This document shows positions 13,973 through 47,217 of a stretch of 64,000 bases of DNA, piece by piece; positions within the stretch are counted from its first letter, which is position 1, and each line of letters starts with the position of its first letter. This stretch comes from an uncultured Armatimonadetes bacterium. Lineage in GTDB: Bacteria; Armatimonadota; UBA5829; DTJY01. Under the pieces are notes generated by a model. The model did no database searches. It was not told the origin of the DNA and saw only the letters and a program-made list of their open reading frames with translations. A program made the translations under genes and the position numbers. Location of the stretch: the NCBI GenBank assembly GCA_963717145.1, contig OY970325.1, positions 4,800,001 through 4,864,000 of the forward strand, written 5' to 3'.

Positions 13973-14025
13973 CCCGTGTACTCCCTCTTCGACAGCGCTC
14001 ATCGCTCGATCCACTGACCCAGGGA

Positions 14026-14054
14026 AGGATACCATCGCGCCCCCGAGGTGTCAA
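14026..14054 (-). promoter_or_regulatory. Sigma70-type promoter for the glycoside hydrolase gene
   Basis: TTGACA-17 nt-TATCCT with TG extension; the -35 box overlaps the stop codon of the upstream gene. Confidence 0.6.
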
Positions 14055-16033
14055 GGAATGTCACTGGAGTCCGCCACCCCCTCCGTGCTATCATCCAGAC
14101 TCAGAACGCGAATCTCCGGGGTGTCACCATCTGCAAAGATGAACTGAGCCATCTGCGCCAAATCGCTCATGTGCTGGGCCGTCTGGGAGGCAGATTCTGC
14201 CGTCCACCCCTGTGTCTCCACTAGTTTCATCTCTACCTGGTGCTCGATTGAGTTCCCATGAAGTCGATAGGCCTCATAGAACATGCTCTCGAAGATGAGA
14301 GCTCCCGGGAACGCGAGACCCCTGAACACATCGGTGAAAACCGCCAAGATGGCGTTTGCCCACGCCTCGATATCCCAGTCCTGAGCTATCGCAGTCGCCA
14401 ACCACTCCACGTGGGAGGCACCTTCTGTATCCGCAGGTTGCGAGCCCGCAAAGTTGAACCAGGAGAAGCCGCACAAAGGGTCAGCGCGCAGTGCCTCCCC
14501 GGTGACCGCTCGACGCTCTGCCCTGCTAAGCCCTTCCGCACTGCCTGTGATCTCCCGTGCAGCAGGTGGATTGCGGCTAACCACGTCCCCAAACCTATCT
14601 GTAACAAGAGTAGCAAAGAAGTGCTTGAGTACGAAATGGGCGATTGGTAGGTCAGATTGCTCCAGGCAGATCTCCAGTTCGGACACTGCCTCTGCAAAGC
14701 GTCCTTGATGCAGAAGAACATCCCCGAGTAGGCCATGCGCCAGTGGCTGTTTGACCTCAAGCTCAATCGATCTGCGGTAGGCAGCTTCCGACCATCTGAG
14801 CTTGCCTATCCCAAAGAGACACCCCGCTGCCTCGCGCCACCAATACGGGCGGTGAAGGTAGGTAGGATCGGCAGTCGCAGCACTACGATACGCCGATATG
14901 GCTCGCCGGGGCTCGCCAGAAGCCCGCAAGCCGTTGCCCAGGTTGTAGAACGCAACGGCTTTCTCCGAATGCGAGCGCGCATTCTCAGCTATGAGTTCCC
15001 TTGCGCGGTTCGCGCGTGCTGCGTGAAGATCATGGCTGAGACCGGCATACATTGTACTCATGAGAACCCAAGTGGCTTCATGGGCGCACCCCTGATGTGC
15101 AAGGTCCTCGGCAAGAGAGATAGCATCGCCTATTGCGCCCGCTGAGGAATAGATCTTGGGCGACCACGTATGATTGAGTAGGGAGATCAGATTGTCGGGA
15201 ACGGCTTCGAGATCGGAGAACATGTTGCCGATGATGTCAATGGATGCGGTTGCGCAGCCCGCTTCCGCAAGTATTAACGCTACCCCGAATTGCGCCAAGA
15301 ACAGCACCTCCTCTTGATCAGGCCGCCCGGGGTTCTGAATGAGGAATCCATCTAGACCACGCTCAGCGCAGGCGATAACGACGCCCGGGGGCTCATCTGT
15401 GAATAGCAACGTGCCGTCCACGGCGCTCGACCCAGTGTAGGTCACGTGCTTGGATGAGCGGCTGTAGCACAACCGGTCCAGAATGGTCTGTTTGAACACA
15501 TCCCCCCATGTTGGGGTGTCGAATTTCAGCTGAATGGAGAACCTGTCTCTGTCAGGACGGAACTGCCCCATCCTATAGCATTGATGACGAACATCTCTCA
15601 GCAGGATCGATGCGTCAACCAGATCAAGGCGTTGAGCTAGTCGGACGGATACTGACTCCTGAGTATGCCAGCGTTTTGTCTGCTCCTCATCCAGATTGCC
15701 GTATACAACGTGTGTCCATTCATAAAAGAGCCGTTTCCCTTGGGCATCATACAGGACGAGCATCGTTGGGAAAGGGCATGACAGATAGTGAAGTAGTCGA
15801 GATGTCTTGAAGCGATACGTGGGCGCTTGGGTATCTGGGCTGATCTTGTCTGAACCCTTCACCTGGGCGAAGAAGAAGAATGGTGTGGCTTGGCCGTCTT
15901 TAAACGCCTGAACCTGGAAATCAAAGCCGTAGTCCGGCGTTTGATCTCTCGGCACCCATTCGGCGGGGATTGCAGCGCGGAATGCCCGCCTCGATTCGTC
16001 CTCCAGAACGTGCGCTCGTGGTCTTCTGGGCAT
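14051..16033 (-). CDS. DUF4365 (PD-(D/E)XK nuclease-like) domain plus TPR protein
   Basis: PDYGFDFQVQ...FFFAQVKGS motif; TPR helices such as AFYNLGNGLR and AHGLLGDVLLHQGRFAEA. Confidence 0.75.
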   Translation of the reverse strand: MPRRPRAHVLEDESRRAFRAAIPAEWVPRDQTPDYGFDFQVQAFKDGQATPFFFFAQVKGSDKISPDTQAPTYRFKTSRLLHYLSCPFPTMLVLYDAQGKRLFYEWTHVVYGNLDEEQTKRWHTQESVSVRLAQRLDLVDASILLRDVRHQCYRMGQFRPDRDRFSIQLKFDTPTWGDVFKQTILDRLCYSRSSKHVTYTGSSAVDGTLLFTDEPPGVVIACAERGLDGFLIQNPGRPDQEEVLFLAQFGVALILAEAGCATASIDIIGNMFSDLEAVPDNLISLLNHTWSPKIYSSAGAIGDAISLAEDLAHQGCAHEATWVLMSTMYAGLSHDLHAARANRARELIAENARSHSEKAVAFYNLGNGLRASGEPRRAISAYRSAATADPTYLHRPYWWREAAGCLFGIGKLRWSEAAYRRSIELEVKQPLAHGLLGDVLLHQGRFAEAVSELEICLEQSDLPIAHFVLKHFFATLVTDRFGDVVSRNPPAAREITGSAEGLSRAERRAVTGEALRADPLCGFSWFNFAGSQPADTEGASHVEWLATAIAQDWDIEAWANAILAVFTDVFRGLAFPGALIFESMFYEAYRLHGNSIEHQVEMKLVETQGWTAESASQTAQHMSDLAQMAQFIFADGDTPEIRVLSLDDSTEGVADSSDIP

Positions 16034-16234
16034 GATTCCCTCCAAGGCGCTTCCGCTAGTGGCGCAATCATCAAACGGATCAGGTCTTGTGATTCCATAG
16101 CGAGAGGCACGGCCTCAGCAAATGCGATGAGTCATGAGTAAGTATAGACGCATTGACCATGCTTTTCAAGCATGTCAAGTCATATCATAGCCCAGAGGCG
16201 CCCGAACCGCTGCCAGAACCAAGACTCCCACTGG

Positions 16235-16273
16235 ACCCACAAACACCCCGGGAGTTTTCACCCCCAGGGTGTT
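16235..16273. repeat. 39-bp hairpin element, copy 1
   Basis: acccacaaacaccccgggagttttcacccccagggtgtt; 36/39 identical to 17599-17637. Confidence 0.85.
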
Positions 16274-16392
16274 TGCAGGTACCTCACCTCGACACTCAGT
16301 TAGCTCAGTTGCGGTGACACCAGCCGCATCCTGAACCAGGCCGATGCAGTAAGCTGTTGTTGTCGCCATATCCCAAGACCCTGGGGCTCGCC

Positions 16393-17400
16393 TCACTCCA
16401 CTTTTTCGTCATCAGCGCTCTGCCCCTCGTCTATCTTGGGGGTATGGTAAAGCCGACAACACATTCTGACGCTTCCACGCGGCTCTGGAGTCCCAGGTTT
16501 CCAGATCTGCTGACATTCGCGACCAAAAGACCTCATCCAGGCGGAGTCTGTCCCAGGGCTCTGACAAAGCATCACCGAGTCGTCTCGCACCTTTCGGTCG
16601 ATTCGCGGCTCTATCAATGACATCGCATATGCCCCGGTGGCTCCAGATGTTTCCCAATCTGTCACCTGTATTCCCTCCAGCATATCAGGAAGCTCGGCAT
16701 AGTCCACAGGCCTGATGTCCATTCTCTTGCAGATAATGTCCTTATCGCTAGCTCCCAAGATCTTGGACATCTCAGCCCGAAATACCGAGAGAACATACGA
16801 GATCGCTCTGTCAGAGATGCAAGCCGCGTTCCCCGCTGTTCCTCGCAACTGATTGCCGAGTTGTGCACTCTCGACCTCTATCTCCTTGTCTTGGAACATA
16901 AGGACATCCCGCTGAAGTGCATCTAGGAGGTACCTGGACGTCATGAGATCCGTTTGCTTCAGCGCCAGGATCGCGTTTGTGAACAGCTCCTGAACCCTTG
17001 GATCATACCCATACAAATCGGCATACGCTATCTCTATCTGTTCCTGCAGGATCCGCATAGAACACTCCGTGTGCACTTTCACCAACTCGCGCCAAAGAAA
17101 GTCACGGACTGGAATAACCGCCCGCTTCTCGATAAGCATGATATCCGCATCCGTGATCACTGGCTCGATGTCATCAAAGAACCTGAGGTTTAGTTCCTTC
17201 CACCGTTCTAGCTTTGCCACTACCATACCGGCAGTACGGCGGACACGATCGGCGTATTCCTTCCTTCTCAGTTGTCTATCCTTGTACCAACTTCCCGCAA
17301 TGGCTGCCGTCGAGACGATTACAGATGATGCGGTTGCTATGTGCCCGACACTGATCGTCTTATCGATGATGAAGTCCACGCCAATCACCTCTCCAACCAA
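16393..17400 (-). CDS. Hypothetical protein with an N-terminal hydrophobic segment (start uncertain)
   Basis: 335-aa ORF in visibly AT-richer DNA; no motif recognised. Confidence 0.65.
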   Translation of the reverse strand: MVGEVIGVDFIIDKTISVGHIATASSVIVSTAAIAGSWYKDRQLRRKEYADRVRRTAGMVVAKLERWKELNLRFFDDIEPVITDADIMLIEKRAVIPVRDFLWRELVKVHTECSMRILQEQIEIAYADLYGYDPRVQELFTNAILALKQTDLMTSRYLLDALQRDVLMFQDKEIEVESAQLGNQLRGTAGNAACISDRAISYVLSVFRAEMSKILGASDKDIICKRMDIRPVDYAELPDMLEGIQVTDWETSGATGAYAMSLIEPRIDRKVRDDSVMLCQSPGTDSAWMRSFGRECQQIWKPGTPEPRGSVRMCCRLYHTPKIDEGQSADDEKVE

Positions 17401-17598
17401 TCATACGTACCAGCAATCCATCTTGTATCACTCTGGATACCTTTCCAGACCAGAAAGCGGATATCCACTCTATAGCACTATATGAAACTTGGCGCACTGT
17501 GTCAACCTCGTGTGAGGGAGAGGCTCTTGCGAAACTCCACGGAGCAGGCAGTGGGCCAGGCGGACGGAACACCGACAGCATTTAACGCCCTCTCCCAA

Positions 17599-17637
17599 AC
17601 CCACAAACACCCCGGAGGTTTTCACCCCCGGGGTGTT
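17599..17637. repeat. 39-bp hairpin element, copy 2
   Basis: acccacaaacaccccggaggttttcacccccggggtgtt. Confidence 0.85.
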
Positions 17638-17841
17638 CGGTGGTAGATCAACTGCATGTTTCTTTGGTCCCTTTACGGGGGTACTGCTCCCCGCCGCGCG
17701 GGCTACATCTCCGGTGTCCGGCATCCGGTATCCTGCTGATCCTGCACTGCTTCCGGTGACCGGTATCCGACCTCACCCCGCCGACGGAGAATGCGGCGCG
17801 CGATGCATACTCCGCATTCCGCATTCCCAATTCGTCATTCC

Positions 17842-18507
17842 CTACGCGGCGATCGTCGCCTGGAAGACGTCCGACCAGGAGCCGGCCTCGCCTTTCTGGT
17901 TGACCCAGCGCAGACGGTAGTACGCCATCTTGCCGGCGTCTCCCTCCGCGTGGTTCACCACGGCGGGCGTGCGACCCGCGGTCTTGGAGTAGGTCATGTC
18001 GCTCGGCCCGGAAGGGGCTTCGCCGACCTTGACCCAGATCTCGCAACCGCGGATGCCGGCGGGCTTCGCCTTGCTGACGCCCGCGTCCTCTTCGTTCTCG
18101 AAGCTGACGATGTGCTTCAGCGGCTGGCCTCCGTTCGCGCGACCTGTCGGCCTGAGCGTCGGCGGCATCTCCGCCGGGACGTATGCGCTGCCACGGACGG
18201 TGATGCGCATCCCCGTGCGATCGGTGTCCGTGACGAGCGGACCGGCCTGCAGCCGATTGACGAGCGCGCGGATCTGCTGCTCGAGATCCGTCCGCTGCGT
18301 ATCCTTCGTGACTGTCGCGCCCTGGGCCTGCGCTTTCCACATGATCTGCTTGTTCAGCGCATCCTTCCAGAGCGGGGTCGCGGTCGAGATGGGGGTGAGG
18401 TCTGCATCGGTGAAGCCCATCGCCTCCATCCTCGGCGTCGCGTAGGTCAGGAAGTTATCGACCCACTCGTCGAAGTTCGCATCTTTGGTTGGCAAATAAC
18501 TTGCCAT
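17842..18507 (-). CDS. Uncharacterised 221-aa protein: helical N-domain plus C-terminal FN3-like beta domain
   Basis: Strong RBS GGAGAGGAGGT; YLPTKDANFDEW, KPAGIRGCEIW and YYRLRWVNQKGEAGSWS. Confidence 0.8.
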   Translation of the reverse strand: MASYLPTKDANFDEWVDNFLTYATPRMEAMGFTDADLTPISTATPLWKDALNKQIMWKAQAQGATVTKDTQRTDLEQQIRALVNRLQAGPLVTDTDRTGMRITVRGSAYVPAEMPPTLRPTGRANGGQPLKHIVSFENEEDAGVSKAKPAGIRGCEIWVKVGEAPSGPSDMTYSKTAGRTPAVVNHAEGDAGKMAYYRLRWVNQKGEAGSWSDVFQATIAA

Positions 18508-18617
18508 TCTTATCACCTCCTCTCCTGCAATCGTTATCTCCATTATCGGCCAACTTATGGTAGAACCACAGAGTTTCCGGCAGTCGCTTTTATAGAAAAA
18601 TGACTTGGAGTTTGGTA

Positions 18618-18800
18618 TGGCAGAAAGAATCATTCTTTCCGCAGTAGGAACGGCGGATCCTTTCGAGGGAATCATTCGTTCCTTGGAGGCAATGGCGGAT
18701 CCTGTGGAGGGAATCATTCCCCCCGCAGAGGGAACGGCGGATCCTTTCGAGGGAATCACTCATTCCGCAGAGGGAATGGCGGATCCTGCGGAGGGAATCG
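18618..18800. repeat. Tandem array with 42-bp period (two related 21-bp halves), ~4.3 units
   Basis: GGCGGATCC recurs every 42 nt; both halves end in GAGGGAAT-like sequence. Confidence 0.9.
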
Positions 18801-18829
18801 CTCCCACATCAGGCGGAGGGAAGGGTGTG

Positions 18830-19223
18830 GGGGGCGACCAGAGTCGCGGGAACGGCGCCAGAGCGCCTCAGGGGTGTTCGGTGTTGGGTGTTAGGGGCCG
18901 GGAACAGGATCCGTCAGCCCTGAGTGTGCCGGTGAATGACGGCATGTATCGAAGGGCGGCCGGGATCGTGGAACCACGGAGGCACGGAGGACACAGAGAA
19001 GACGGAAGAGGAAACCCGTCAGCCCTGAGTGTGCCGGTGAATGACGGCATGTATCGAAGGGCGGTGGCAGATAGCCCAACCTTTGTGCAGGTCCCACCGT
19101 CCTTCGATACACGCCCAGAGGCGCACTCAGGACTAGCGGGCACTGGGAGGTGGGAGAAAGAAAGCGAGTGTCAGGTGTTGGGGGCGACCAGAGTCGCGGG
19201 AACGGCGTCAGAGCGCCTCAGGG
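18830..19223. repeat. 44-bp direct repeats (18830-18873, 19180-19223) enclosing fragments of hairpin family B
   Basis: gggggcgaccagagtcgcgggaacggcgYcagagcgcctcaggg twice; identical 49-bp arms at 18911-18959 and 19016-19064; degenerate inverted arm at 19097-19139. Confidence 0.88.
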
Positions 19224-19356
19224 ATGTCAGGGGCGGAATCCGGCTCGTACGCGTACTCCTAATCGTAATCGTACTCGGCTTTTCCGCCGTTCGATGTTGG
19301 ACGTTCGATGTTCGATGTTCGCTCCCCGTCCCTCCTCACTCCTCGCCCCTCTCTCC

Positions 19357-21828
19357 TCACTCCTGCTCCTCGATCTCCCGGAGGACGATGTCCAGCCATG
19401 CCTGCACGGTCTTGGTGTTGGGGTGCTCGTCCCCCAGGAACTTGCGGAGTATGGCCAGCGCCCGCGAGATGTGCTCCTTCGCGCCCGGCAGGTCTCCGAG
19501 GTCTCGCATAACGCTGCCGAGGTTGTTGAGGCGGATGGCGACGTTGGGATGATCCGGCCCGTAAGCGGCCACATCGATCCTGAGCGCCCGCTCGATGTGC
19601 TCCTTCGCGCCCGGCAGGTCTCCTAGGTCTTGCAGGACGCTGCCGAGGTTGTTGAGGCGGATGGCGACCGTGGGATGGTCCGGCCCGAGAGTCGCCTCAC
19701 TGATCCTGAGCGCCCGCTCAAATCGCTCCTTCGCGCCCGGCAGGTCTCCGAGGTCTTGCAGGACGAGGCCGAGTGTACTGGCATATATGGCAGCCTGAGG
19801 ATGATCCGGTCCGAGTGTCGCCTCACCGATCCTGAGCGCCCGCTCGAAGTGCCCCTTCGCGCCCGGCAGGTCTCCGAGGGCTCGCAGGACGTCCCCCAGG
19901 TTGTTGGCATATATCGCAACCTGGGGATGATCCTTCCCCAAGGCTTCCTCACCGATCCTGAGCGCCCGCTCGTAGTGCCCCTTCGCGCCCGGCAGGTCTC
20001 CGAGGGCCTTCAGGACACCGCCCAGGTTGCTGATGATGGCAGCCACCTCAATATGGTCTTCTCCGTAGAACACCCCGTGCGCGGCGAGCGCCCGCTCATG
20101 GGCGACCTTCGCCTCCGCGAACTGCGCGCGGCCTCTCAGATAGATTCCCGCCTGATTGAGAACACGCGCTGTGGCGTCGGGAGCTATCCCTAGATCCTCC
20201 GCGTGGCCCGCGGACGCGAGGGCATGGGGTAGGAGGCGCGCGCATTCCTCCCAGGTGCGAACATCATCGCTATGCTGAGGGAAGGCGTCGTTCACGACTT
20301 GGACGGCGGCCTCGGCCCATTTGTTGTGATCGTCTCCGTCGAGGCGCGCGCGGGTTACGGCTTGTACCAGGCGGTGGACGGAGAGCATCCCATCCGCGGA
20401 CTCGACGAGCGAATACTTCCGGAGAGCCGCCACAGCATCATCGAGCGCAAGCGGATCCTTGACCGCTTCGGCGAGAGGCTCGGGAAGGAACTTCGCGCCG
20501 GCAGTGATCGCGCCGAGCGGGATGTCGTCCGGGGCGAAGAAGGCGCAGAGATCGAGCAATTGCGCTCCGGCGGGTGACTCACCCTCGACCGCCTTGAACG
20601 AGATCTCCCAGGTCGTGGCGACCGTCGCTTCGTAGTCGTCGGCGGGCTTCCCGCGAGCGAGCAGTTCCTTCTCCGACCGCCGATAAAGGTCCAGGTACTC
20701 GGCAGGCGTCTTGTTCGCCTCCTCCATATACGCGGCGGCCTGCGCCAGTGCGAGCGGGAAATCGCAGAGAGCCTCCGCCAGGGCGTCCGCTCCCTTCCGA
20801 TCCGTCTGCCCGGAGCGCTTCAGCAGGAGGTCGATCGATTCGGTCCGCTTCATCCTGGTCACGGGCAGCGGCTCGGCCTCCCCGCGCCAGTTCGGATTCC
20901 TGGAGGTCACGATCACGTGTCCGGCCTCTTCGAGCGGAAGATAGGGCACGATGTCCTCCGGCATATTCACGTTATCGAAAACGATGAGCCAGCCGGTCGA
21001 ATCGCTCAGGAACGCGCGGACTGCCTGTGCGATCGCGGGCTCATCGGCGGCGTCCGCCTCCGGAAGTCCGATCCTCCCCGCGAGGGATGCGTAGTCCGAG
21101 ATCAGAGTGGACGGCTTCTCGCAGCGGACCCACCAGATGATGGTGTAATCGCTCATGTGCCGGTACGCATATTCCAGGGCCGCCTGCGTCTTCCCGATGC
21201 CCCCGAGCCCGTGCATCGCCTGAGTGAGCGCGGCAAGTTTGCCCGAGGTCAGCTTCTTGCGCAGATCGTCGAGGAGCTTCCCGCGGCCGGTGAAGTTGCG
21301 ATTGCGCCCGTGCGGGATGTTGTGGACCGTGCGGGCTCCCACGGGGAACTCAGGCCGCTCCGGCATCGCCCGTGTCGCAGTGATAGGGCACGGGGGCTTA
21401 GTGTCGGGCTTCCCTCTCGGCTTGAGGCCGTCGAGGAGTGCCACCCTGATCTCCTCTTCGTCGGTCAGCCCGACCAGGTCGAGATAGCTCCTGGACTTGA
21501 GCAGACCGGGCGGTTCACATTCCTCGATTCGGATGGGAAAGAGCTTTCTCTCCTCACCCGTGGGATCGTCCGCGAAGAACGTCGCCCACTCGGCCTCGAC
21601 AAAGCCTGACTCCAGGGAGTTCGGCGAGAGGACGAGGATGAGGCGGTCGGCCTTCTGCAGGCCCCTGTGCATATCGAGGGCCCAGTTTCCCCCGGGCCGG
21701 AAGTCCCACGCCTGGATGATAACGTGGTATCCCGCTTCCTCCAACTCCCAGGCGATCCACTCCGCCCACTCCCGGTCATCGCCGGTGTAGCTGATGAAGA
21801 AGTCTTTGCTCGGCGCGTCTTCGGTCAT
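19357..21828 (-). CDS. TIR-NB-ARC-TPR (NLR-like STAND) protein 1
   Basis: DFFISY TIR start, FVEAEW, Walker A GLGGIGKT, Walker B WLIVFDNV, VTSR, FPLAL, VHRLV, 42-aa TPR repeats. Confidence 0.93.
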   Translation of the reverse strand: MTEDAPSKDFFISYTGDDREWAEWIAWELEEAGYHVIIQAWDFRPGGNWALDMHRGLQKADRLILVLSPNSLESGFVEAEWATFFADDPTGEERKLFPIRIEECEPPGLLKSRSYLDLVGLTDEEEIRVALLDGLKPRGKPDTKPPCPITATRAMPERPEFPVGARTVHNIPHGRNRNFTGRGKLLDDLRKKLTSGKLAALTQAMHGLGGIGKTQAALEYAYRHMSDYTIIWWVRCEKPSTLISDYASLAGRIGLPEADAADEPAIAQAVRAFLSDSTGWLIVFDNVNMPEDIVPYLPLEEAGHVIVTSRNPNWRGEAEPLPVTRMKRTESIDLLLKRSGQTDRKGADALAEALCDFPLALAQAAAYMEEANKTPAEYLDLYRRSEKELLARGKPADDYEATVATTWEISFKAVEGESPAGAQLLDLCAFFAPDDIPLGAITAGAKFLPEPLAEAVKDPLALDDAVAALRKYSLVESADGMLSVHRLVQAVTRARLDGDDHNKWAEAAVQVVNDAFPQHSDDVRTWEECARLLPHALASAGHAEDLGIAPDATARVLNQAGIYLRGRAQFAEAKVAHERALAAHGVFYGEDHIEVAAIISNLGGVLKALGDLPGAKGHYERALRIGEEALGKDHPQVAIYANNLGDVLRALGDLPGAKGHFERALRIGEATLGPDHPQAAIYASTLGLVLQDLGDLPGAKERFERALRISEATLGPDHPTVAIRLNNLGSVLQDLGDLPGAKEHIERALRIDVAAYGPDHPNVAIRLNNLGSVMRDLGDLPGAKEHISRALAILRKFLGDEHPNTKTVQAWLDIVLREIEEQE

Positions 21829-21918
21829 CTCCTCGGCCCTCCTTTCTCCGGTCACCCTCGGCCCGTTCGCCGCTCGATGTTGGACGTTCGATGTTCGATG
21901 CTCGCTTCCCGTCCCTCC

Positions 21919-24372
21919 TCACACCTGCTCCTCGATCTCCCGGAGCACGATGTGCAGCCATGCCTGCGTGTTCTTGGTCTTGGGATGCTCGTCCCCCAGG
22001 AACTTGCGGCGTATCTCCAGCGCACGCTCGATGTGCTCCTTCGCGCCCGGCAGGTCTCCGAGGGTTCGCAGGACGTTGCCGAGGTTGTTGGCATATAAGG
22101 CAACCTGGGGGTGATCCGGCCCGAGGGCTTTCTCGCCAATGGTAAGCGCCCGCTCCAAGTGCTCCTTCGCGCTCGGCAGGTCTCCGAGGTCTTGCAGGAT
22201 GAGGCCGAGCCTGGAGGCATAGATCGCCACGTATGGCGCGTATCTCGCCTCATCGATCCTGAGCGCCCGCTCCAAATGCTCCCTCGCACCCTGCAACTCT
22301 CCGTGGTCTGCCAGGACGCAGCCGAGATTGCCGGCATAAATCGCCATGTATGGCCCGTATCTCGCCTCATCGATCCTGAGCGCCCGCTCGATATGCTCTC
22401 TCGCGCCCGGAAGGTCTCCGCGGGCTTGCAGGACGAGGCCGAGGTTGTTGAGGCGGATGGCGACAGTGGGATGATCCGGCCCGTAGGCAGCCTCATCGAT
22501 CCTGAGCGCCCGCTCGAGGTGCTCCTGCGCGCCCGGCACGTCTCCGAGTTCTCGCAGAACATTGCCGAGGTTGCTGAGAATTTCAGCCACCTCAGTACGC
22601 TCTTCTCCATACAAGGCTCGGTGTGCCTCAAGTGCCCACTCATAAGCGTCCTTCGCCTCTGCAAACTGCGCGCGGCCACTCAGATAGAGCCCCGCCTGAT
22701 TGAGAACACGAGCAGTGGCGTCGGGAGCGATCGCCAACTCCTCCGAATAGCCCGCGGACGCGATGGCATGGGGAAGGAGACGGGCGCATTCCTCCCAGGT
22801 GCGATAGTCATAGCTCTCCTGCGGGAAGGCATCCTTGATAGTCTCGATGGCGGCCTCGGCCCACTTCTTGTGATCGTCACCATCGAGGCGGGCGCGGGTT
22901 ACGGCCTGAACCAGACGGTGGACGGCGAGGTTGCCGGAGTCCGCGTCTAGCAGCGAAAAGCGTCGGAGAGCCCGCAGAGCCTCATCGAGCAAGAGAGGCT
23001 CCTTGACAACTTCGGCCAGAGACTCGGGGAGGAACTTCGCTCCGGCGGTGATCACGTCGAGCGGGATGCTATCCGGAGCGAGGAAGGCGCAGAGGTTGAG
23101 CAGATCGGCAGCGGCAGGGGATTCCTTTTCCACCTGCTGAAACGATATCTCCCAGGTCGTGGCGACCGTCGCCGGGTAATCAACCGGAGGGTCGCCCTTC
23201 CTCAGGAGTTCCTGCGCGTGTTCGTTGAAAAGCGTCAGGTACTCGGGGAGCGGCCTGCCGGTCTCCTCCATATACGCCGCCGCCTGCTCCAGGGCGAGCG
23301 GGAAATCGCCGAGCGCCTTCGCCAGGGCGTCCGCAGCGATTGTGTCCTCCGTCCCGATGCGTCTCTGGAGGAACTCCACCGACTCCTCGCGCTTCCACTT
23401 TTCGACGGTCACAGCAGAGGCCGTTCGACCCCAGGCCTGATAGCGCGAGGTGATGATCACATTGCCGCCTTTTCCCTGCGGAAGATAGCCGTCGAGGTCC
23501 GGGGGCTTCTCGACGTTATCGAAAACCAGAAGCCATCCGGTAATATGCCCGAGATGCGCGCGCACGGCCTCCACGATCTTCGGCTGCTCGGCGGCGTCCT
23601 TCTCGGGAAGATCGAGTTTCCGCGCGAGGGCGGCGTAGTCGGACGCGAGGGTCGAGGGGTCCTCCGACCGAATCCACCAGACGATATCGTAGAGATCGGC
23701 GTACCGATACGCATACTCCAGGGCGAGCTGCGTCTTCCCCACGCCTCCGAGTCCGGCCATCGCCTGAGTGAGCGTGGCATGCGTGCCGGAGGTCAGGGCG
23801 TTGTGCAGGCTGTCGAGAATCTCCGCGCGCCCGGTGAAGTTCGGGTTCCGATTATGCGGCACGTTCCAGTGCGGCGGGAGAGTCCCGGGGAATCGGGGCT
23901 TCTTCTCGACGGCGCGCCTGGCGGTCGGAGGGAATCCGGGGGGAGTCCCCGGCTTCGCTCGACCTTCCTTGACCTCCGCGAGCAGCTTCGTCCTGGCGGT
24001 GCCCTCATCGAGGCCGCACAGGTCGATATAGATGCGCGGACCGAGCAGACCGTCGGGCTTGCAGTCGCGGATTCTGACGGGAACGAGCTTGCTCTCCCGC
24101 CCTGCGGGGTCCTGCGCGAAGACCGCGCTCCATTCGGCGGCGACGAAATCGGATGCGAGGGAATCGGGCGACAGGACGAGGATGGTCCGCTCGGCGTTCC
24201 TCAGGCCCTCGTGCATATCGACGACGAAGTTCCCCCCAGCCGCAAAGTCCCATGCCTGGATGACGCACGGATGGCCCGCCTCCTCCAGCTCCCAGGCGAT
24301 CCACTCCGCCCACGCCCGATCGGCCTTGTTGTAGCTGATGAAGAAGTCTTTCTTCCCGTCTTCAGTGGTCAT
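21919..24372 (-). CDS. TIR-NB-ARC-TPR (NLR-like STAND) protein 2
   Basis: Same architecture: FVAAEW, GLGGVGKT, WLLVFDNV, GDFPLAL, VHRLV; two 39-aa TPR variants. Confidence 0.93.
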   Translation of the reverse strand: MTTEDGKKDFFISYNKADRAWAEWIAWELEEAGHPCVIQAWDFAAGGNFVVDMHEGLRNAERTILVLSPDSLASDFVAAEWSAVFAQDPAGRESKLVPVRIRDCKPDGLLGPRIYIDLCGLDEGTARTKLLAEVKEGRAKPGTPPGFPPTARRAVEKKPRFPGTLPPHWNVPHNRNPNFTGRAEILDSLHNALTSGTHATLTQAMAGLGGVGKTQLALEYAYRYADLYDIVWWIRSEDPSTLASDYAALARKLDLPEKDAAEQPKIVEAVRAHLGHITGWLLVFDNVEKPPDLDGYLPQGKGGNVIITSRYQAWGRTASAVTVEKWKREESVEFLQRRIGTEDTIAADALAKALGDFPLALEQAAAYMEETGRPLPEYLTLFNEHAQELLRKGDPPVDYPATVATTWEISFQQVEKESPAAADLLNLCAFLAPDSIPLDVITAGAKFLPESLAEVVKEPLLLDEALRALRRFSLLDADSGNLAVHRLVQAVTRARLDGDDHKKWAEAAIETIKDAFPQESYDYRTWEECARLLPHAIASAGYSEELAIAPDATARVLNQAGLYLSGRAQFAEAKDAYEWALEAHRALYGEERTEVAEILSNLGNVLRELGDVPGAQEHLERALRIDEAAYGPDHPTVAIRLNNLGLVLQARGDLPGAREHIERALRIDEARYGPYMAIYAGNLGCVLADHGELQGAREHLERALRIDEARYAPYVAIYASRLGLILQDLGDLPSAKEHLERALTIGEKALGPDHPQVALYANNLGNVLRTLGDLPGAKEHIERALEIRRKFLGDEHPKTKNTQAWLHIVLREIEEQV

Positions 24373-24414
24373 GTCTTCTCCGCTCCCCACCCGCACGTCC
24401 GTCTCGGCGTGTCC

Positions 24415-26745
24415 CTAGCCGGATTCCTTCTCGTCGATCTCCCGGAGGACGATGTCCAGCCAGCTCTGCGCCCTCTCCGTATCAGGGTGATCGTTTCCCA
24501 GGAACTGCCCACATATCCCCAACTCCCGCTTGAAATGTTCCTTCGCGCCCTGCAAATCCCCAAGGCGTCGCAGGACCAAACCGATACCGCCGAGGTGGCT
24601 TACTATCTTGGGATCATTGGGGCCAAAGGCAGTCTCGTCTATTGCCAGTGCGCGCTCGAAATACTCATAAGCTCGACGGAATTCCCCGCATCTGTACAGC
24701 ACAAACCCAAGGTTGCAGAGACGGATAGCGACGGCGGGATGCTCGGGGCCATAGAGATCCCTATCCATATCCAGCGCCTGCTCATAGTACGCTTTTGCCC
24801 CCTCGTGATCTCCCAAGGTGCTCAGGACGAGACCGAGGTTGTTCAGGTTGATGGCGATCTCGGAATGACTTGGGCCATAAGTGGACTTATTAATAGATAG
24901 AGCTCGCTCGAAGTGCTCCTTCGCTGCCTTGGGGTCTCCAAGATCCAGCAGGACAAGGCCGAGGTCGTTCAGGTCCACAGCCACATTGTGATGATTCGGC
25001 CCGCTGCTCCTCTCATCTTCCATAACCGCCTGTTCCAGCACGTGCTGCGCCTCCACGAATCGCGCGCATCTACGCAAGTACAGCCCCACCTCATCCAAGA
25101 CTTTTCCAGTCGCATTGCACTGAATGGCAAGATCGCGCGCATGTGCCACCGCTGCCATGGCATGTGGCACCAGCCACGCGCATTCGTACCACGGCCGCAG
25201 ATCATAGTCCTCCTGCGGGAACGCACGCTTGACAAGGCGCACGGCGGCTTCGGCCCACTTCTTCTGATCGTCTTCGCTGAGACGGTCGAGGGTGACGGCC
25301 TGGACCAGACGGTGGACGGAGAGCTTCCCATCCTGACACTCCGCAAGCGAATAGTGTCCGAGGGCGATTAGGGCTTCGTCGAGCTTCAACTCATCCTGCA
25401 CGACTCCCGCGAGCGGCTCGGGGAGGAACTGCGCGCCCGATCGGATGATATCCAGCGGGATATCGTCCGGGGCGAAGAAGGCGCAGAGGTTGAGCAGGTC
25501 CGCGCCGGCGGGGGACTCCTTCCTGAGGGCTTCGAAGCTGATCTCCCAGGTGGTCGCAACCGTGGCTTCGTAGTCAGTCGCGGGCTTTCCGCGTTCGAGG
25601 AGATCCTGCCGGTGCTTCTCATAGAGCGCAGTGTAATCGGCCAGGGACTTGCCGGCCTTGCGGATATACGCTCCCGCCTGCTCCAGCGCGAGCGGGAAGT
25701 CGCCGAGAACATCCGCCAGCTTGTCCGCATCGTCCGGTTCGTCGCGCCCGGTGCGTCTGAGGAGGAACGCGACCGACTCCTTGCGAGGCCAGACCTTCAC
25801 CGATAACTCGGACGCCGTTCCGCTCCAGTCCGATTCGCGCGAGGTGATGATCACGTGCCCGGTCTCCCCCAGCGGAAGGTATGGCCTCACGTGCTCAGGC
25901 TTCTCGACGTTATCGAAAATGAGAAGCCATCCGGTGATATGCCCGAGGTGGGCTTTCACCGCCGCTGCGATCTCGGGCTGGTTGGAGGGATCGGCTATCG
26001 GCAGGTTCAGCTCCCCGGCGAGGGCCGCGTAATCGGAAGCAAGCGTGCTGGGGTCTTCGGAGCGGACCCACCAGACGATATCGTAGTCGGCTTTGTGCCG
26101 ATACGCATACTCCAGGGCGAGCTGCGTCTTCCCGATGCCGCCGAGCCCGTGCATCGCCTGAGTGAGCGCGGCGGGTTTGCCGGAGGTCAGGGCCTCGCGC
26201 AGATCGGTCAGAATCTCCTCGCGCCCGGTGAAGTTCGGATTCCGCCGGTGCGGGATGTTCCATATCTTAGGCAGCGTTCCCCGGAAGACCTTCAGCCATT
26301 TCGGACACTTGCCCGGAATCCTGGCGGCGGCGGGATCGCATTTGGCGACTTCCAGGAGGGCCTCCCTGGCATCAGGCTCACTCAGGCCGACGAGATCGAG
26401 ATAGATAATCGATCGGAGCAGACCCTCTACCTCGCAACTCCGAACGCGAATGGGGATGAACTTCCGCATCTCGCCCGTGGGGTCTTCGGCAAAGGTGGCG
26501 GCGAACTCGGCCATGGCGAAACCGGATGTGAAGTAATCGGGAGAGAGAACGCCGATGGTATGCTCGGCAATCTTGAGGGCTTCATCCATCATGAGGACGA
26601 AGTTGTTCCCCGGCCGGAAGTCCCAGGCCTGGATGATCGTGGAGTAACCGGCGACCTCCAACTCGTGCGCGATCCAGACCGCGTGGTCCGCGTCGGCCTT
26701 GTTGTAGCTGATGAAGAAGTCTTTCTTCGAGTCCTTAGCGCTCAT
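24415..26745 (-). CDS. TIR-NB-ARC-TPR (NLR-like STAND) protein 3
   Basis: FAMAEF, GLGGIGKT, WLLIFDNV, GDFPLAL, VHRLV; more diverged TPRs. Confidence 0.93.
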   Translation of the reverse strand: MSAKDSKKDFFISYNKADADHAVWIAHELEVAGYSTIIQAWDFRPGNNFVLMMDEALKIAEHTIGVLSPDYFTSGFAMAEFAATFAEDPTGEMRKFIPIRVRSCEVEGLLRSIIYLDLVGLSEPDAREALLEVAKCDPAAARIPGKCPKWLKVFRGTLPKIWNIPHRRNPNFTGREEILTDLREALTSGKPAALTQAMHGLGGIGKTQLALEYAYRHKADYDIVWWVRSEDPSTLASDYAALAGELNLPIADPSNQPEIAAAVKAHLGHITGWLLIFDNVEKPEHVRPYLPLGETGHVIITSRESDWSGTASELSVKVWPRKESVAFLLRRTGRDEPDDADKLADVLGDFPLALEQAGAYIRKAGKSLADYTALYEKHRQDLLERGKPATDYEATVATTWEISFEALRKESPAGADLLNLCAFFAPDDIPLDIIRSGAQFLPEPLAGVVQDELKLDEALIALGHYSLAECQDGKLSVHRLVQAVTLDRLSEDDQKKWAEAAVRLVKRAFPQEDYDLRPWYECAWLVPHAMAAVAHARDLAIQCNATGKVLDEVGLYLRRCARFVEAQHVLEQAVMEDERSSGPNHHNVAVDLNDLGLVLLDLGDPKAAKEHFERALSINKSTYGPSHSEIAINLNNLGLVLSTLGDHEGAKAYYEQALDMDRDLYGPEHPAVAIRLCNLGFVLYRCGEFRRAYEYFERALAIDETAFGPNDPKIVSHLGGIGLVLRRLGDLQGAKEHFKRELGICGQFLGNDHPDTERAQSWLDIVLREIDEKESG

Positions 26746-26782
26746 GAAACCTCTCGCTGGGGTCAGGCTTTCACGCGCTTAC

Positions 26783-26810
26783 ATTATACCAGCCGACCGG
26801 TAGGTGTCAA
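26783..26810 (-). promoter_or_regulatory. Consensus sigma70 promoter of the NLR-like operon
   Basis: TTGACA-16 nt-TATAAT with TG extension, ~40 nt upstream of the ATG. Confidence 0.85.
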
Positions 26811-26974
26811 GGGAAGGGGGGAGGGCGGGAGGGCATCGGAGGATGGGCCCGGCGGATCGATGTGTCGCGCGCGGGTGGGGGATGACCGGCAACTCGCGGG
26901 CTGAGCGATCTACTCCGCAATCCGCACTCGCGATTCTCTGGGCGGCGATCGTCGCGTCGACGAGATCGCACGCG

Positions 26975-27142
26975 GCGACTGTTATCTCGATGGTTGCGAC
27001 CGTTATCTCGATGGGTGCGACTGTTATCGCGATGGTTGCGACGGTTGTCGCGATGGTTGCGACCGTTATCGCGACGGTTGCGACTGTTGTCGCGATGGCC
27101 GCGACTGTTATCGCGACGGTTGCGACTGTCATCGGGATGAGC
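26975..27142. repeat. Tandem array of 8 x 21 bp (consensus near GCGACTGTTATCGCGATGGTT)
   Basis: Units begin at 26975, 26996, 27017 and so on to 27122. Confidence 0.92.
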
Positions 27143-27196
27143 GCGAGCGATCGAGCGATGCCCGGGATCGAAGCGGGCGTCGAGCCGCCCGGGGGA

Positions 27197-27225
27197 AAAG
27201 CGGTGTCGAGCCACCGCACTCCATA
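27197..27225 (-). repeat. Solo GGAG-type REP-like element
   Basis: Minus strand TATGGAGTGCGGTGGCTCGACACCGCTTTT: GGAG foot followed by a GCGGTG/CACCGC hairpin. Confidence 0.6.
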
Positions 27226-27304
27226 TCCCTCGAAGGCGACAGGCCGAGTACGAGTACGATCAGGGGTACGAGTACGAGGGGAAGCGGAGATGATGGCCGG
27301 AGGG

Positions 27305-27333
27305 TTGACCGGGAGGGGTGGGGGACGTATACT
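27305..27333 (+). promoter_or_regulatory. Sigma70-type promoter of the Kelch-SSS operon
   Basis: TTGACC-17 nt-TATACT. Confidence 0.7.
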
Positions 27334-27370
27334 GTCGGCAACGGATTACTCATGGATCGAGGAATCGCCG

Positions 27371-30061
27371 ATGCCGAGATACGCCGCAAAGATGCTCGCA
27401 GTTCTCTTCGCAGTTGTCCTTCTGAGCGCTCTTCCGCTCTGTGCCGGGTCACCGGAGTACAACTCCGGTGACAACAGGTTGGGGGCCGGCGAGAACAGGT
27501 TGGGGGCCGGCGACAAGAGAGAAAGAGCGTTGTCACCGGAGTTGTACTCCGGTGACCCACCACGGATGTTCGACTGGAAGACGCTGCCGACGCTCCCGAT
27601 GCCGCTCTCCGGTCACTTCGCCGGGACATCAAACGGCGCGCTGATCGTCGCGGGCGGGACGAACTTCCCAGTGTCGCTGTTCGAGGGCGGCACGAAGGAG
27701 TGGTACGACTCGGTCTACGTCCTTCCAAAGGGCGAGAAGGCTTGGAAGAAGGGGGGAACGCTCCCGCACTCCCTCGCTTACGGAGCGTCGGTTTCGACCG
27801 ATGAAGGGCTGGTCTGCATCGGCGGCGGGGATGCCGAGAAGCACTATCCGAAGGCATTCCTGCTTCAGTATGCCAAGGGCGCGACTCCGCGAACAGCCGC
27901 CACCATAGAAAGCGTCTCCCTTCCTGATCTGTGGGAGGCAAGAGCATTCTTCGGGGCAGCCCTGCTGGGCGACCTGATCTATGTAGTAGGCGGACAGACC
28001 GATCCGAAGTCGACCGAAGCCCTCAACTCCGCCTGCGTTCTCAGTTTCCGGTCGGACGACGCCATGTGGTTGATGATAGAACCGCTCCCCGGTCCGGGAC
28101 GAATCCTGCCGGTGGTGGCGGCACAGGACGGCGCGGTCTACGTCTTCGGTGGGTGCTCGCTGAGTCCCGGTCCGGACGGCAAGGCGGTCAGGAAGTACCT
28201 CTGGGACGGCTATTGCTATCGGCCCGGAAAGGGATGGAAGAAGGTAGCGGACCTTCCGTGGCCGGTGACCGCCGCTCCGAGCATCGCGCACGGTCCCTCG
28301 CACATCCTCGTCTTCGGCGGCGATGACGGCGCGCTCGTCGATCGCGTGCAGGAACTCAAGGACAAGCATCCCGGATTCAGCCGCCAGTTGATCGCTTACC
28401 ATACCATTACAGACAGATGGGCCTGGATGGGAACGCTTCCGAAGGGGCTCGTCACGACAAACGCCGTCACCTGGGAGGGAAGCATCGTGATCCCCGGCGG
28501 GGAGGATCGTCCGGGCCACAGATCGGCGGAGGTGCTGAGCGCGAAGGGCATGAAGCCGGAGGGACACTTCTTCCCGCTCGATTACGGGGTCCTGATCGCC
28601 TACCTGCTCGGGATGGTGTGGATCGGGTTCATTATGGCCGGCCGTGAGGAGACGACGGACGACTTCTTCCTCGGCGGGCGGCGCGTGCCGTGGTGGGCGG
28701 CGGGGCTCAGCATCTTCGGCACTCAGCTCAGCGCGATCACGTTCATGGCGATACCGGCAAAGGTCTACGCCACGGACTGGGTCTACATCCTCGGGAACAT
28801 GTGCATCGTGCTCGTGGCGCCGCTGGTCGTGTTCTTCTACCTCCCGTTCTTCCGGCGGCTCAATGTCACGACGGCCTATGAGTACCTGGAGAAGCGGTTC
28901 AGCCTTCCCGTGAGGCTCTTCGGGAGCGCGTCGTTCATCCTCTTCCAGTTGGGGCGGATGGGGATCGTGCTCTTCCTGCCGGCGATCGCGCTCTCGGCGG
29001 TGACGGGGATCGGCATCACGACCTGCATCCTCCTGATGGGCGTGCTGGCGACGATGTACACGGTCATGGGCGGAATCGAGGCGGTGATCTGGACCGACGT
29101 CGTGCAGGTGATCGTCCTGCTCGGCGGCGCGATCGTCAGCCTGATATGGATATTGGCCGAGTACGGCGGAGGGATCGGCGAGGCGTTCGCCGTGGCGCAG
29201 TCGGCCGACAAGTTCCACACCTTCAACTGGACCTGGGACATCACGACCGCGGCCGTCGGGGTCGTCGTCGTGGGCAACATATTCAGCAACCTCGTGCCGT
29301 ACACCGCGGACCAGGCCGTGATCCAGCGCTACCTCACGACCAAGGATGAGAATGCGGCGAAGAAGTCGATCTGGCTCAACGCGTGGCTCTCGGTCCCGTC
29401 GGCGTTCATCTTCTTCGGCGTCGGGACGGCGCTCTGGCTCTTCTACCGCAGCCATCCCGGCCTGCTGAACCCGTCGCTCTCGACCGACGCGATCTTTCCG
29501 CTGTTCATCGCGATGGAGCTTCCGGCGGGGATCACGGGGCTCGTGGTTGCGGGACTCTTTGCGGCGGCGATGTCGACCTTGGACAGCAGCATGAACAGCG
29601 TGGCGACGGCGCTGGTCACCGATTTCTACCGCAGATTCAGGCCGAACGCTCCGGATCGGAGATGCCTCAACCTCGCGCGCTGGCTGACCGTGTTCCTCGG
29701 AGTCGCGGGAGTCGGGACGGCGCTCTGGATGGCGAACAGCGGAATCAAGTCGCTCTGGGACGCCTTCATAACGATCCTCGGGCTGACAGGCGGGGCGCTC
29801 GCGGGGATGTTCATCCTCGGGATCTTCACCCGGCGCGCGCACGGTACGGGAACGCTCATCGGCGCGATCGGCGGCGGATTCGTGCTCTACATGGTGCAGA
29901 GCCGCACGAGCGTCCACTTCTTCCTCTACGCGGCGGTGGGGATCGTCGCGTGTGTCGTGATCGGATACGCGGCGAGTCTCATCATCCCCGCGAAGAAGCG
30001 CGATCTCAGTGGGCTCACCATATACACAATCAATGACGGGAGGGGCGATCTCGGATCCTAA
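27371..30061 (+). CDS. Fusion of a Kelch beta-propeller (NanM mutarotase-like) and a sodium:solute symporter (sialic acid transporter-like)
   Basis: Signal peptide; VAGGTNFP, IGGG, VFGG and GGEDRPG Kelch motifs; FFLGGRRVPWWAAGLSIFGTQLSAITFM, QAVIQRY, AAAMSTLDS. Confidence 0.88.
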   Translation: MPRYAAKMLAVLFAVVLLSALPLCAGSPEYNSGDNRLGAGENRLGAGDKRERALSPELYSGDPPRMFDWKTLPTLPMPLSGHFAGTSNGALIVAGGTNFPVSLFEGGTKEWYDSVYVLPKGEKAWKKGGTLPHSLAYGASVSTDEGLVCIGGGDAEKHYPKAFLLQYAKGATPRTAATIESVSLPDLWEARAFFGAALLGDLIYVVGGQTDPKSTEALNSACVLSFRSDDAMWLMIEPLPGPGRILPVVAAQDGAVYVFGGCSLSPGPDGKAVRKYLWDGYCYRPGKGWKKVADLPWPVTAAPSIAHGPSHILVFGGDDGALVDRVQELKDKHPGFSRQLIAYHTITDRWAWMGTLPKGLVTTNAVTWEGSIVIPGGEDRPGHRSAEVLSAKGMKPEGHFFPLDYGVLIAYLLGMVWIGFIMAGREETTDDFFLGGRRVPWWAAGLSIFGTQLSAITFMAIPAKVYATDWVYILGNMCIVLVAPLVVFFYLPFFRRLNVTTAYEYLEKRFSLPVRLFGSASFILFQLGRMGIVLFLPAIALSAVTGIGITTCILLMGVLATMYTVMGGIEAVIWTDVVQVIVLLGGAIVSLIWILAEYGGGIGEAFAVAQSADKFHTFNWTWDITTAAVGVVVVGNIFSNLVPYTADQAVIQRYLTTKDENAAKKSIWLNAWLSVPSAFIFFGVGTALWLFYRSHPGLLNPSLSTDAIFPLFIAMELPAGITGLVVAGLFAAAMSTLDSSMNSVATALVTDFYRRFRPNAPDRRCLNLARWLTVFLGVAGVGTALWMANSGIKSLWDAFITILGLTGGALAGMFILGIFTRRAHGTGTLIGAIGGGFVLYMVQSRTSVHFFLYAAVGIVACVVIGYAASLIIPAKKRDLSGLTIYTINDGRGDLGS
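27446..27558. repeat. REP-like doublet in frame within the Kelch-SSS CDS
   Basis: Perfect 30-bp inverted repeat 27446-27475/27529-27558; each arm GTCACCGGAGT-nnn-ACTCCGGTGAC; 21-bp-period duplication between the arms. Confidence 0.9.
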
Positions 30062-47187: not shown

Positions 47188-47217
47188 ATTATAACGGATC
47201 CGAACTGGTTTTGTCAA
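47188..47217 (-). promoter_or_regulatory. Sigma70 promoter of typA
   Basis: TTGACA-18 nt-TATAAT. Confidence 0.8.

Follow-up and report, generated by a model that had tools for sequence, protein, structure and literature searches.

The window treated here is a stretch of 64,000 nucleotides (nt) from the genome of an uncultured Armatimonadetes bacterium (contig OY970325.1, positions 4,800,001 to 4,864,000 of the forward strand), a genome which consists of a single contig of 5.37 Mb. The window region 19357–26810 carries three co-oriented genes on the minus strand, A, B and C, that lie head to tail, and each encodes a protein with a TIR_2 domain, a nucleotide-binding oligomerisation domain (NOD) of the NB-ARC type, a DUF7779 winged helix and a series of 42-residue tetratricopeptide repeats (TPRs) resembling those of kinesin light chains. 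An earlier examination of the letters and open reading frames (ORFs), hereafter the sequence-only reading, had described three head-to-tail TIR-NB-ARC-TPR paralogues at this place. The ORFs, the exclusive clade formed by the genes and a 27-nt repeat considered below confirm the paralogues, and the Pfam domains together with a NOD profile confirm the architecture. The genes and their associated features are listed in Table 1.

For genes B and C, whose longest ORFs open with GTG, the ATG codons at 24372 and 21828, respectively, are the likelier true starts because each is preceded by a GGAG-type ribosome-binding site and the products are listed as 817 and 823 amino acids (aa). Counted from these ATG starts, the intergenic gaps amount to 42 nt between A and B and 90 nt between B and C. 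A GAGAGG ribosome-binding site precedes the ATG of gene A, and further upstream the TTGACA-16-TATAAT promoter, which the sequence-only reading had set at the head of the array, was found without a single mismatch to the sigma-70 consensus. Perfect sites of the form TTGACA-N16-18-TATAAT occur twice in the window versus never in 100 shuffles, and 38 times in the whole genome versus zero times for a reversed-pattern control. The other perfect site of the window (TTGACA-N18-TATAAT, 47188–47217, minus strand) lies upstream of the housekeeping GTPase gene bipA/typA (45215–47059) and is consistent with an organism that uses sigma-70 consensus promoters for its well-expressed genes.

Terminator-like sites on the minus strand are confined, downstream of the array, to the hairpin at 19001–19020; none lies between the three genes and one is located inside gene A (26569–26550). 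The array looks like a single operon, predicted to be strongly transcribed, because it has a consensus promoter and short gaps, and terminator-like sites occur only inside A and past C.

Table 1. Positions in the window of genes A, B and C, their domains and the associated sequence elements.
Feature	Position	Strand	Remarks
Promoter, TTGACA-16-TATAAT	26783–26810	-	12/12 match to sigma-70 consensus; -10 hexamer at 26783–26788; extended -10 TG; about 37 nt upstream of gene A ATG
Gene A	24415–26745	-	776 aa; ATG start; NF040586 481.3 bits
Gene A, TIR_2	26356–26718	-	residues 10–130
Gene A, NOD (NBD-HD-WHD)	25234–26247	-	about residues 167–504
Gene A, TPR units	about 24418–25071	-	five 42-aa units and terminal capping helix
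Gene B	21919–24372	-	817 aa from ATG at 24372; NF040586 491.7 bits
Gene B, longest ORF	21919–24396	-	825 aa; GTG start
Gene B, TIR	23983–24345	-	
Gene B, NOD	22840–23853	-	followed by six TPR units
27-nt exact repeat, copy 1	21874–21900	-	just past gene B stop
Gene C	19357–21828	-	823 aa from ATG at 21828; NF040586 496.7 bits
Gene C, longest ORF	19357–21855	-	832 aa; GTG start
Gene C, TIR	21451–21801	-	
Gene C, NOD	20296–21309	-	followed by six 42-aa TPR units
27-nt exact repeat, copy 2	19291–19317	-	just past gene C stop
Terminator-like hairpin with T-rich tail	19001–19020	-	about 340 nt downstream of C; within dispersed 49-nt repeat region

Pfam searches matched TIR_2 in all three proteins with E values of 3e-26 to 4e-35, DUF7779 with 42–48 bits and TPR_12 with 182–250 bits, TPR_10 also being strong, and yielded no DNA-binding domain in A, B or C. 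The NB-ARC model (PF00931) scored 21.2 bits for A, 22.6 bits for B and 24.9 bits for C, relative to a gathering cut-off of 23.5. When a profile of the NOD alone, built from 53 sequences, was run against the PDB sequences, it matched AfsR (1.4e-21), NRC1 (1e-12), the plant receptor Roq1 (2.6e-11), Apaf-1 (6.8e-11), ZAR1 (2e-8) and CED-4 (0.04), with Avs4 reaching just E 0.34. Since solved NB-ARC proteins rank far above Avs4 in this search, the NOD appears to belong to the AP-ATPase/NB-ARC clade of the STAND (signal transduction ATPases with numerous domains) proteins rather than to those of Avs or NACHT.

The nucleotide-binding motifs are intact in all three translations, as had been claimed, and comprise Walker A (GLGG[IV]GKTQ), Walker B (L[LI][IV]FDNV), sensor-1 (TSR), a GxP-like motif ([GC]DFPLAL) and an MHD-type motif (VHRLVQ); in each gene the STAND motifs follow one another in the order Walker A, Walker B, TSR, GDxPLAL and VHRLVQ. 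Conservation was assessed in an alignment of A, B and C with 69 of their best homologues (n = 72). The Walker A Lys is present in 71 of these sequences and the Walker B Asp in all 72, followed by Asn in 70, while the Ser of sensor-1 TSR, the Pro of GxPLAL and the His of the MHD-like VHRLVQ are each found in 72 of 72. In bacterial TIR domains a Glu on the alpha-C helix is catalytic. The corresponding residue, number 80 from the ATG start in each of the three genes, lies in the context AMAEF in A, VAAEW in B and VEAEW in C; it is a Glu in 69 of the 72 family members and it aligns, in a PDB search, with the QKEL Glu of 3h16, a TIR protein of Paracoccus with a solved structure, in agreement with the position that the sequence-only reading had assigned to it.

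The TPRs match the 42-residue type of the peptide-binding kinesin light chains at an E value of 2e-23 for a single protein and 3e-47 for the family profile. Their regions differ between the genes in number, length and sequence, as had been noticed earlier, with five units of 42 aa in A, six in B, of which units 3 and 4 are cut to 39 aa, and six of 42 aa in C. The last helix, WL[DH]IVLREI, is nevertheless common to all three proteins, as had also been noticed, and in longer homologues its counterpart in the alignment is the degenerate helix A (NNLGxVL) of one more TPR unit. This suggests a capping half-repeat that the three genes owe to their common ancestor.

Duplication and divergence of the three genes

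In a tree of the nucleotide-binding domain (NBD) and winged-helix domain (WHD), A, B and C form an exclusive clade with respect to the 69 homologues (SH-aLRT 88). The exact 27-nt repeat is part of about 70 nt of 3' flank common to B and C, with two matches versus zero expected, and a flank alignment did not find it after gene A. As it follows the stop codons of both B and C, the most recent duplication probably took the 3' flank along, and the repeat is best read as a footprint of tandem duplication. The three genes would, on this evidence, have arisen through local tandem duplication.

Trees constructed for separate domains are incongruent, the TIR domain grouping B with C (96), the NBD grouping A with C (88) and the pre-TPR region again grouping B with C (97). 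Moreover, the TPR regions of B and C show a synonymous divergence (dS) of 0.40, versus about 0.7 for their TIR and NBD. Because the domain trees disagree and the dS values of B and C contrast in this way, segment exchange between the paralogues is indicated, with moderate support.

Amino-acid identities between A, B and C and the pairwise ratios of nonsynonymous to synonymous substitution (dN/dS) are 57–62% and 0.36–0.40 for the TIR domain, 57–64% and 0.45–0.51 for the NBD, and 66–71% and 0.27–0.31 for the WHD. For the TPR region they are 47% and 0.32–0.35 when A is compared with B or C, and 68% and 0.62 when B is compared with C, and for the latter pair the TPR region is the most similar long domain. 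The sequence-only reading had seen in the array a shared effector combined with diversified sensors, and this part of it did not hold, the TIR domain being no more conserved than the NOD, and B and C being most alike in their TPRs. It had also proposed a dN/dS estimate for each domain across related genomes; the estimate was obtained among the paralogues, and there the TPR region, at 0.32–0.62, stays below 1 along with every other long domain.

The first and last TPR units of B and C are positionally orthologous (B1–C1 67%, B6–C6 81%). Internal units are not, B2 being nearest to C4 and C5 and B5 nearest to C2, all at 79%, and they are 54–79% identical both within and between the two proteins. 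Nonsynonymous differences among the internal units of B and C are concentrated at 15 of the 42 positions, chiefly within helix A and the loop between the helices, and the pooled pN/pS is 1.1 at these positions versus 0.33 elsewhere. The comparison reuses the measure by which the 15 positions had been picked and draws on 28 unit pairs that are not independent of one another, so that it locates the variation rather than testing for selection.

Clusters of plant resistance (R) genes likewise consist of tandem paralogues, and here the tandem arrangement is accompanied by a duplication footprint, mosaic domain trees and shuffled repeat units. The array differs from R-gene clusters in being a single bacterial operon with one promoter; its pairwise dN/dS values are below 1. 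Tentatively, and with considerable doubt, it may be viewed as an analogue of such a cluster evolving in situ, that is as a strongly transcribed operon of receptors like the plant nucleotide-binding leucine-rich repeat receptors (NLRs), which would make new specificities via duplication, unequal crossing-over of near-identical 42-residue TPR units and segment exchange, and would thereby maintain a small evolving repertoire of TIR receptors in one lineage. The footprint, mosaic trees and shuffled repeats make the array a neat small case of a prokaryote in which genes evolve in an R-gene-like manner.

Distribution, family name and related systems

Proteins of this kind are common. Of 8,000 candidates that were scored, more than 4,000 match the gene C product at E ≤ 0.001; identity is 43–58% for the best non-self matches, nearly all of which show the same architecture, and about 112 of 120 close homologues among the matches listed also carry TIR_2. 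Named sources include the Thermodesulfobacteriota, Acetobacteraceae, Chloroflexia and Methanosarcinaceae, and related loci derive from many more phyla. Within the phylum of the present organism a strong match was obtained in 44 of 401 genomes, this one included. The phylum-wide survey scored two candidates per genome and is usable for the adjacency of the two best matches, not for counts of triple arrays; on that basis none of the nine other genomes with two matches has these adjacent to one another. An invariant copy number in relatives, which the sequence-only reading had named as a point that would speak against it, was not found, an above-cut-off copy occurring in 3 of 40 relatives. Homologues are present on 101 plasmid records, and overall the distribution appears to be accessory and of a mobile type. 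In the genome studied here, A, B and C are the only matches above the cut-off of the NCBIfam model NF040586 and their NOD type was found nowhere else.

Two peptide patterns from the N-terminal TIR served to collect a further 80 related loci, each with flanks of at most 10 kb; many of these loci stop at contig ends. A single NOD copy is present in 66 of these loci, two copies in 3 and three copies in none, while the remaining 11, which are truncated or TIR-only matches, have no NOD copy above threshold. Thus three-gene arrays are rare and pairs exist. One pair is carried by the 34-kb Methylobacterium plasmid NZ_AP024150.1 (10475–16802), where two divergent genes labelled fxsT flank a DUF4231 gene, and the same plasmid encodes RelE/ParE, BrnT/BrnA and an Abi-family gene. 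DUF4231, a SLATT-type membrane domain, is a possible partner in some family members.

With 481–497 bits, A, B and C exceed the cut-off of 300 set for the NCBIfam equivalog NF040586, 'FxSxx-COOH system tetratricopeptide repeat protein' (FxsT), and the annotation pipeline PGAP labels the plasmid homologues fxsT. For actinobacteria, Kaur et al. (2020, PMC7159879) describe a TIR-AP-ATPase-TPR gene that lies downstream of a system which processes FxSxx peptides and is linked to ternary vWA-MoxR systems. The NOD-WHD-TPR core of those proteins is the same as in A–C, whereas the actinobacterial gene context (FxSxx, FxsB, HExxH and vWA-MoxR) was not found here. The best match to FxsB (TIGR04269) in the genome, some 117 kb upstream of the window, reaches 112.6 of the 370 bits set as the cut-off, the HExxH peptidase model TIGR04267 has no match in the genome, and the window contains no vWA or MoxR gene. 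A radical SAM/SPASM ORF at 988–2049 of the window is not among the TIGR04269 matches. Membership of an Fxs system, a class of ribosomally synthesised and post-translationally modified peptide (RiPP) systems, was consequently rejected, given that the FxsB match is distant and below cut-off and that TIGR04267 is unmatched.

Because FxsB and the HExxH peptidase were not found in the genome, the FxsT label is misleading here, and where genes of genomes lacking such a system are automatically named 'FxSxx-COOH system TPR protein', a probable role in immunity is obscured. A search for partners among 586 flanking ORFs from the 80 related loci revealed no conserved partner gene, the largest flanking cluster, of 8 loci, reflecting Lentzea synteny and the largest cross-taxon cluster, of 5 loci, being an ABC-type ATPase. 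As judged from these flanks, the family seems usually to occur as a stand-alone gene.

A eukaryotic parallel in overall plan is found in the plant TNP proteins (TIR-NBARC-TPR, formerly XTNX), such as maize ZmTNP-IIa, where the three-part architecture is identical; this likeness is drawn from their published description and not from a direct comparison to a plant TNP sequence. Cell death caused by ZmTNP-IIa requires the TIR Glu and the P-loop, and bacterial TIR-NB-TPR proteins are reported to resemble TNPs in their nucleotide-binding domain, while the TIRs and TPRs of TNPs reportedly have no specific relationship to the bacterial ones (Johanndrees 2022, PMC9806590). The resistosome-forming plant TIR-NLRs Roq1 and RPP1 combine TIR and NB-ARC domains as do A–C, and the NOD profile match to Roq1 was given above. 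Relative to plant TIR-NLRs and R-gene clusters, the sensor of A–C consists of TPRs instead of leucine-rich repeats and there is no EDS1-type pathway.

The closest solved NOD is that of AfsR, a SARP-NB-ARC-TPR protein of Streptomyces (PDB 8k60 and 8jke), which shares with A–C the Walker B 'DN' signature and the location of the TPRs after the NOD. It differs in being a transcription factor with an N-terminal DNA-binding SARP domain, whereas the N-terminus of A–C is a TIR domain. The bacterial Avs and bNACHT proteins have in common with A–C the logic of an effector, an NTPase and a repeat sensor, and for Avs it is reported that TPR-like sensors bind phage proteins and that the proteins oligomerise (PMC12803255 and the preprint of Kibby et al.). 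Membership of Avs was itself rejected, since the NOD is of another STAND clade and PADLOC gave no match to an Avs or NLR system. PDB entry 9h2l, at one time considered as a prokaryotic relative, was dropped as it is cited in a review of plant NLRs.

Fungal and bacterial NLRs with internally conserved TPR or WD repeats have been described by Dyrka et al. (2014, 2020), and the shuffling of units in B and C fits the reshuffling mode set out in the 2020 preprint. The internal unit identities in B and C (54–79%) are below the 80–90% quoted there, and no amyloid signalling motif or Bell-domain partner gene was seen beside the array. Repeat-unit reshuffling in NLR TPR arrays has thus already been described in that preprint, and the architecture and its bacterial spread are, as the sequence-only reading had allowed, already in print (Kaur 2020, the Dyrka 2020 preprint and Johanndrees 2022). 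The protein type is therefore common and known, and current concepts are left unchanged, with only the three-gene array being unusual. The locus contributes a three-gene operon of a rare kind, whose paralogues are mosaic and whose footprint of duplication is clean, together with a clear case of a misleading FxsT label.

Proposed mechanism and alternatives

We propose, with moderate confidence, that A, B and C form one operon and encode three NLR-like STAND receptors, paralogous and stand-alone, which fall in the AP-ATPase/NB-ARC clade and serve as intracellular immune sensors, and in which sensing of a phage ligand by the TPRs would lead to NAD+ cleavage by the TIR domains and to abortive infection. 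The mechanism is put forward by analogy to plant TIR-NLRs, the maize TIR-NBARC-TPR protein and bacterial Avs. At rest each protein would probably be a monomer kept inactive with ADP bound. A protein or peptide ligand, most likely derived from a phage, would bind to the kinesin-light-chain-like TPR solenoid and so release the NOD, and nucleotide exchange and oligomerisation through the NOD would follow. This would unite the N-terminal TIR domains, so that composite active sites able to cleave NAD+ would arise around the conserved Glu, and depletion of NAD+ would stop the growth of the infected cell. Since the paralogues appear to have exchanged segments and reshuffled their TPR units following duplication, A, B and C probably recognise different ligands. 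That a potentially toxic enzyme should stand under a strong constitutive promoter is compatible with its being tightly controlled at the post-translational level. If this function is correct, the array would offer a compact natural set of three receptors for studying the triggers and TPR ligands of bacterial NB-ARC-type TIR receptors.

In support of an immune role, the neighbourhood offers one suggestive gene, encoding a DUF4365-TPR protein 3.3 kb downstream of the array. It spans 14051–16045 on the minus strand and encodes 664 aa, with DUF4365 (E 4e-15) followed by TPRs, and it lies in a stretch of lower G+C content (0.55–0.57 versus about 0.62). DUF4365 is described in PMC10810196 as a nuclease domain linked to short prokaryotic Argonaute systems, and the gene may be another fusion of an effector to a sensor. 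Neither an NTPase domain nor a PADLOC match was detected in its product.

Several observations weigh against the receptor operon as proposed. The flanks of the array consist mostly of genes for carbohydrate and sialic-acid catabolism. The scan against PADLOC-DB 2.0.0, a check that the sequence-only reading had suggested, returned no system for A–C, yielding weak domain-level hits to bSEFIR (up to 40.4 bits), Aga TIR, ThsB and TPR models, and among the 39 other ORFs of the window a single one matched, through a generic radical-SAM match to pVip (51.5 bits); the locus is not a classical defence island. No homologue was found in the phage collection, and literature searches turned up no experimental work on bacterial proteins of exactly this family. 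At the level of the proteins, the NB-ARC scores of A and B fall under the Pfam gathering cut-off, the TIR domains of A, B and C deviate around the Glu from the family consensus [FY]TQPEW, and the best TIR matches in the PDB are to the non-enzymatic receptor TIRs of Hydra TRR-2, TLR15/2 and TLR1. The conserved TIR Glu is necessary, not sufficient, for NADase activity. With regard to diversification of the sensors, pairwise dN/dS is below 1 in every long domain (0.27–0.62) and the excess of nonsynonymous change at 15 TPR positions rests on positions picked by that same statistic.

Alternatively, the same machinery might serve a conflict other than with phages, in which self or non-self cues, as in kin discrimination, stress or encounters with plasmids and other mobile elements, would lead to regulated cell death or to dormancy; this has been proposed for NLR-like proteins in complex or multicellular prokaryotes. 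Published work links AP-ATPase/NB-ARC-TPR proteins with conflict systems found in multicellular prokaryotes and with the NLRs of fungal allorecognition (PMC7159879 and the Dyrka 2020 preprint), the array has no classical defence-island context, and the genome encodes nine TIR_2 ORFs, one of them a TIR-WD40-Ras GTPase protein. We nevertheless regard this as unlikely, as the bacterial STAND and NACHT systems tested in PMC12803255 and in the preprint of Kibby et al. are anti-phage, plasmid relatives adjoin Abi and toxin-antitoxin genes, and nothing at the locus bears on multicellularity of the organism. It is also rather improbable that the TIR domains generate a signal, with a nucleotide of the cyclic ADP-ribose (cADPR) type activating an effector whose gene lies in another part of the genome. 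According to PMC10022894 and the preprint 10.64898/2026.03.01.708072, the cADPR isomers produced by Thoeris-type TIRs act as activators of separate effectors, and the DUF4231 gene of the Methylobacterium plasmid lies directly between two family members. The 80 related loci, however, show no conserved neighbour and no candidate effector adjoins the array, and it is because no conserved partner was found that direct depletion of NAD+ is tentatively favoured over second-messenger signalling.

The shared operon could be explained if A, B and C acted as one hetero-oligomeric unit, either as a sensor with helpers or in mixed resistosomes, and the single promoter, the gaps of 42 and 90 nt, the lack of a terminator between the genes and the fact that the NOD and WHD are the best-conserved parts among the paralogues (57–71% identity) would be in keeping with this. 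Such a unit is very improbable given that all three proteins retain a complete effector, switch and sensor with intact motifs and that most relatives are single genes, with one copy in 66 of the 80 loci. We attach equally little weight to the idea that A–C are FxsT components of an FxSxx-COOH RiPP or a vWA-MoxR ternary conflict system: the NF040586 scores, the PGAP label and the actinobacterial context, as reported by Kaur et al. (2020), speak for it, and the sub-threshold FxsB match, the unmatched TIGR04267, the window free of vWA and MoxR genes and the variable neighbours of the 80 loci speak against it. A non-immune regulatory or scaffolding role, in which a STAND-TPR switch would operate like the AfsR-type regulators and the TIR domain would serve solely for interaction, draws on the transcriptional regulator AfsR having the closest solved NOD and on the best PDB matches of the TIR domain being to scaffold-type receptors. 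It too is highly unlikely, in view of the lack of a DNA-binding domain, the retention of the Glu in 69 of 72 relatives, the patchy accessory distribution and the presence of relatives on plasmids.

Neighbouring genes and repeats

Upstream of the array, and divergent from it, an ORF at 26804–30061 (plus strand, 1085 aa) encodes Kelch/NanM-like mutarotase repeats fused to a sodium:solute symporter. Its true start is probably further downstream because the annotated start overlaps the array promoter. After the symporter gene come three more, one PEP-hydrolase-like, one of the UPF0261 family and one BNR sialidase-like, and this run, from the Kelch/NanM-symporter to the sialidase-like gene, looks like a cluster for sialic-acid uptake and catabolism. 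When the PEP-hydrolase-like gene was used as a query, no match was obtained in 10 genomes of the same family. Sulfatase, glycosidase and glycosyltransferase genes lie farther out, and an IS66-family transposase gene is located at 60011–61411 (plus strand), about 33 kb from the array.

Between the array and the DUF4365-TPR gene there are two ORFs on the minus strand, at 16393–17400 and 17842–18759, neither of which has a match in Pfam, NCBIfam, PADLOC or PHROG. For the former, a protein atlas gave unnamed clusters only. The latter probably starts further downstream than annotated, because the N-terminal third of its product is the translation of a 42-nt tandem repeat.

Elsewhere in the genome, at 3112294–3114771 (plus strand), an 825-aa protein combines TIR_2 with a WD40 beta-propeller and a Ras-family GTPase. 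Its domain composition suggests a different NLR-like or conflict-type architecture.

Downstream of gene C there is about 1 kb of repeat-rich non-coding DNA (18300–19360), and Rfam gave nothing at the gathering score in the interval 14000–27500. The repeats comprise the tandem repeat of 42-nt period at 18627–18836, a 54-nt pair at 18824–18877 and 19174–19227, and two exact 49-nt copies at 18911–18959 and 19016–19064. The 49-nt element occurs in 19 copies in the genome at up to 3 mismatches, versus none for a reversed control, which suggests a repeat family resembling repetitive extragenic palindromic (REP) sequences or miniature inverted-repeat transposable elements (MITEs).

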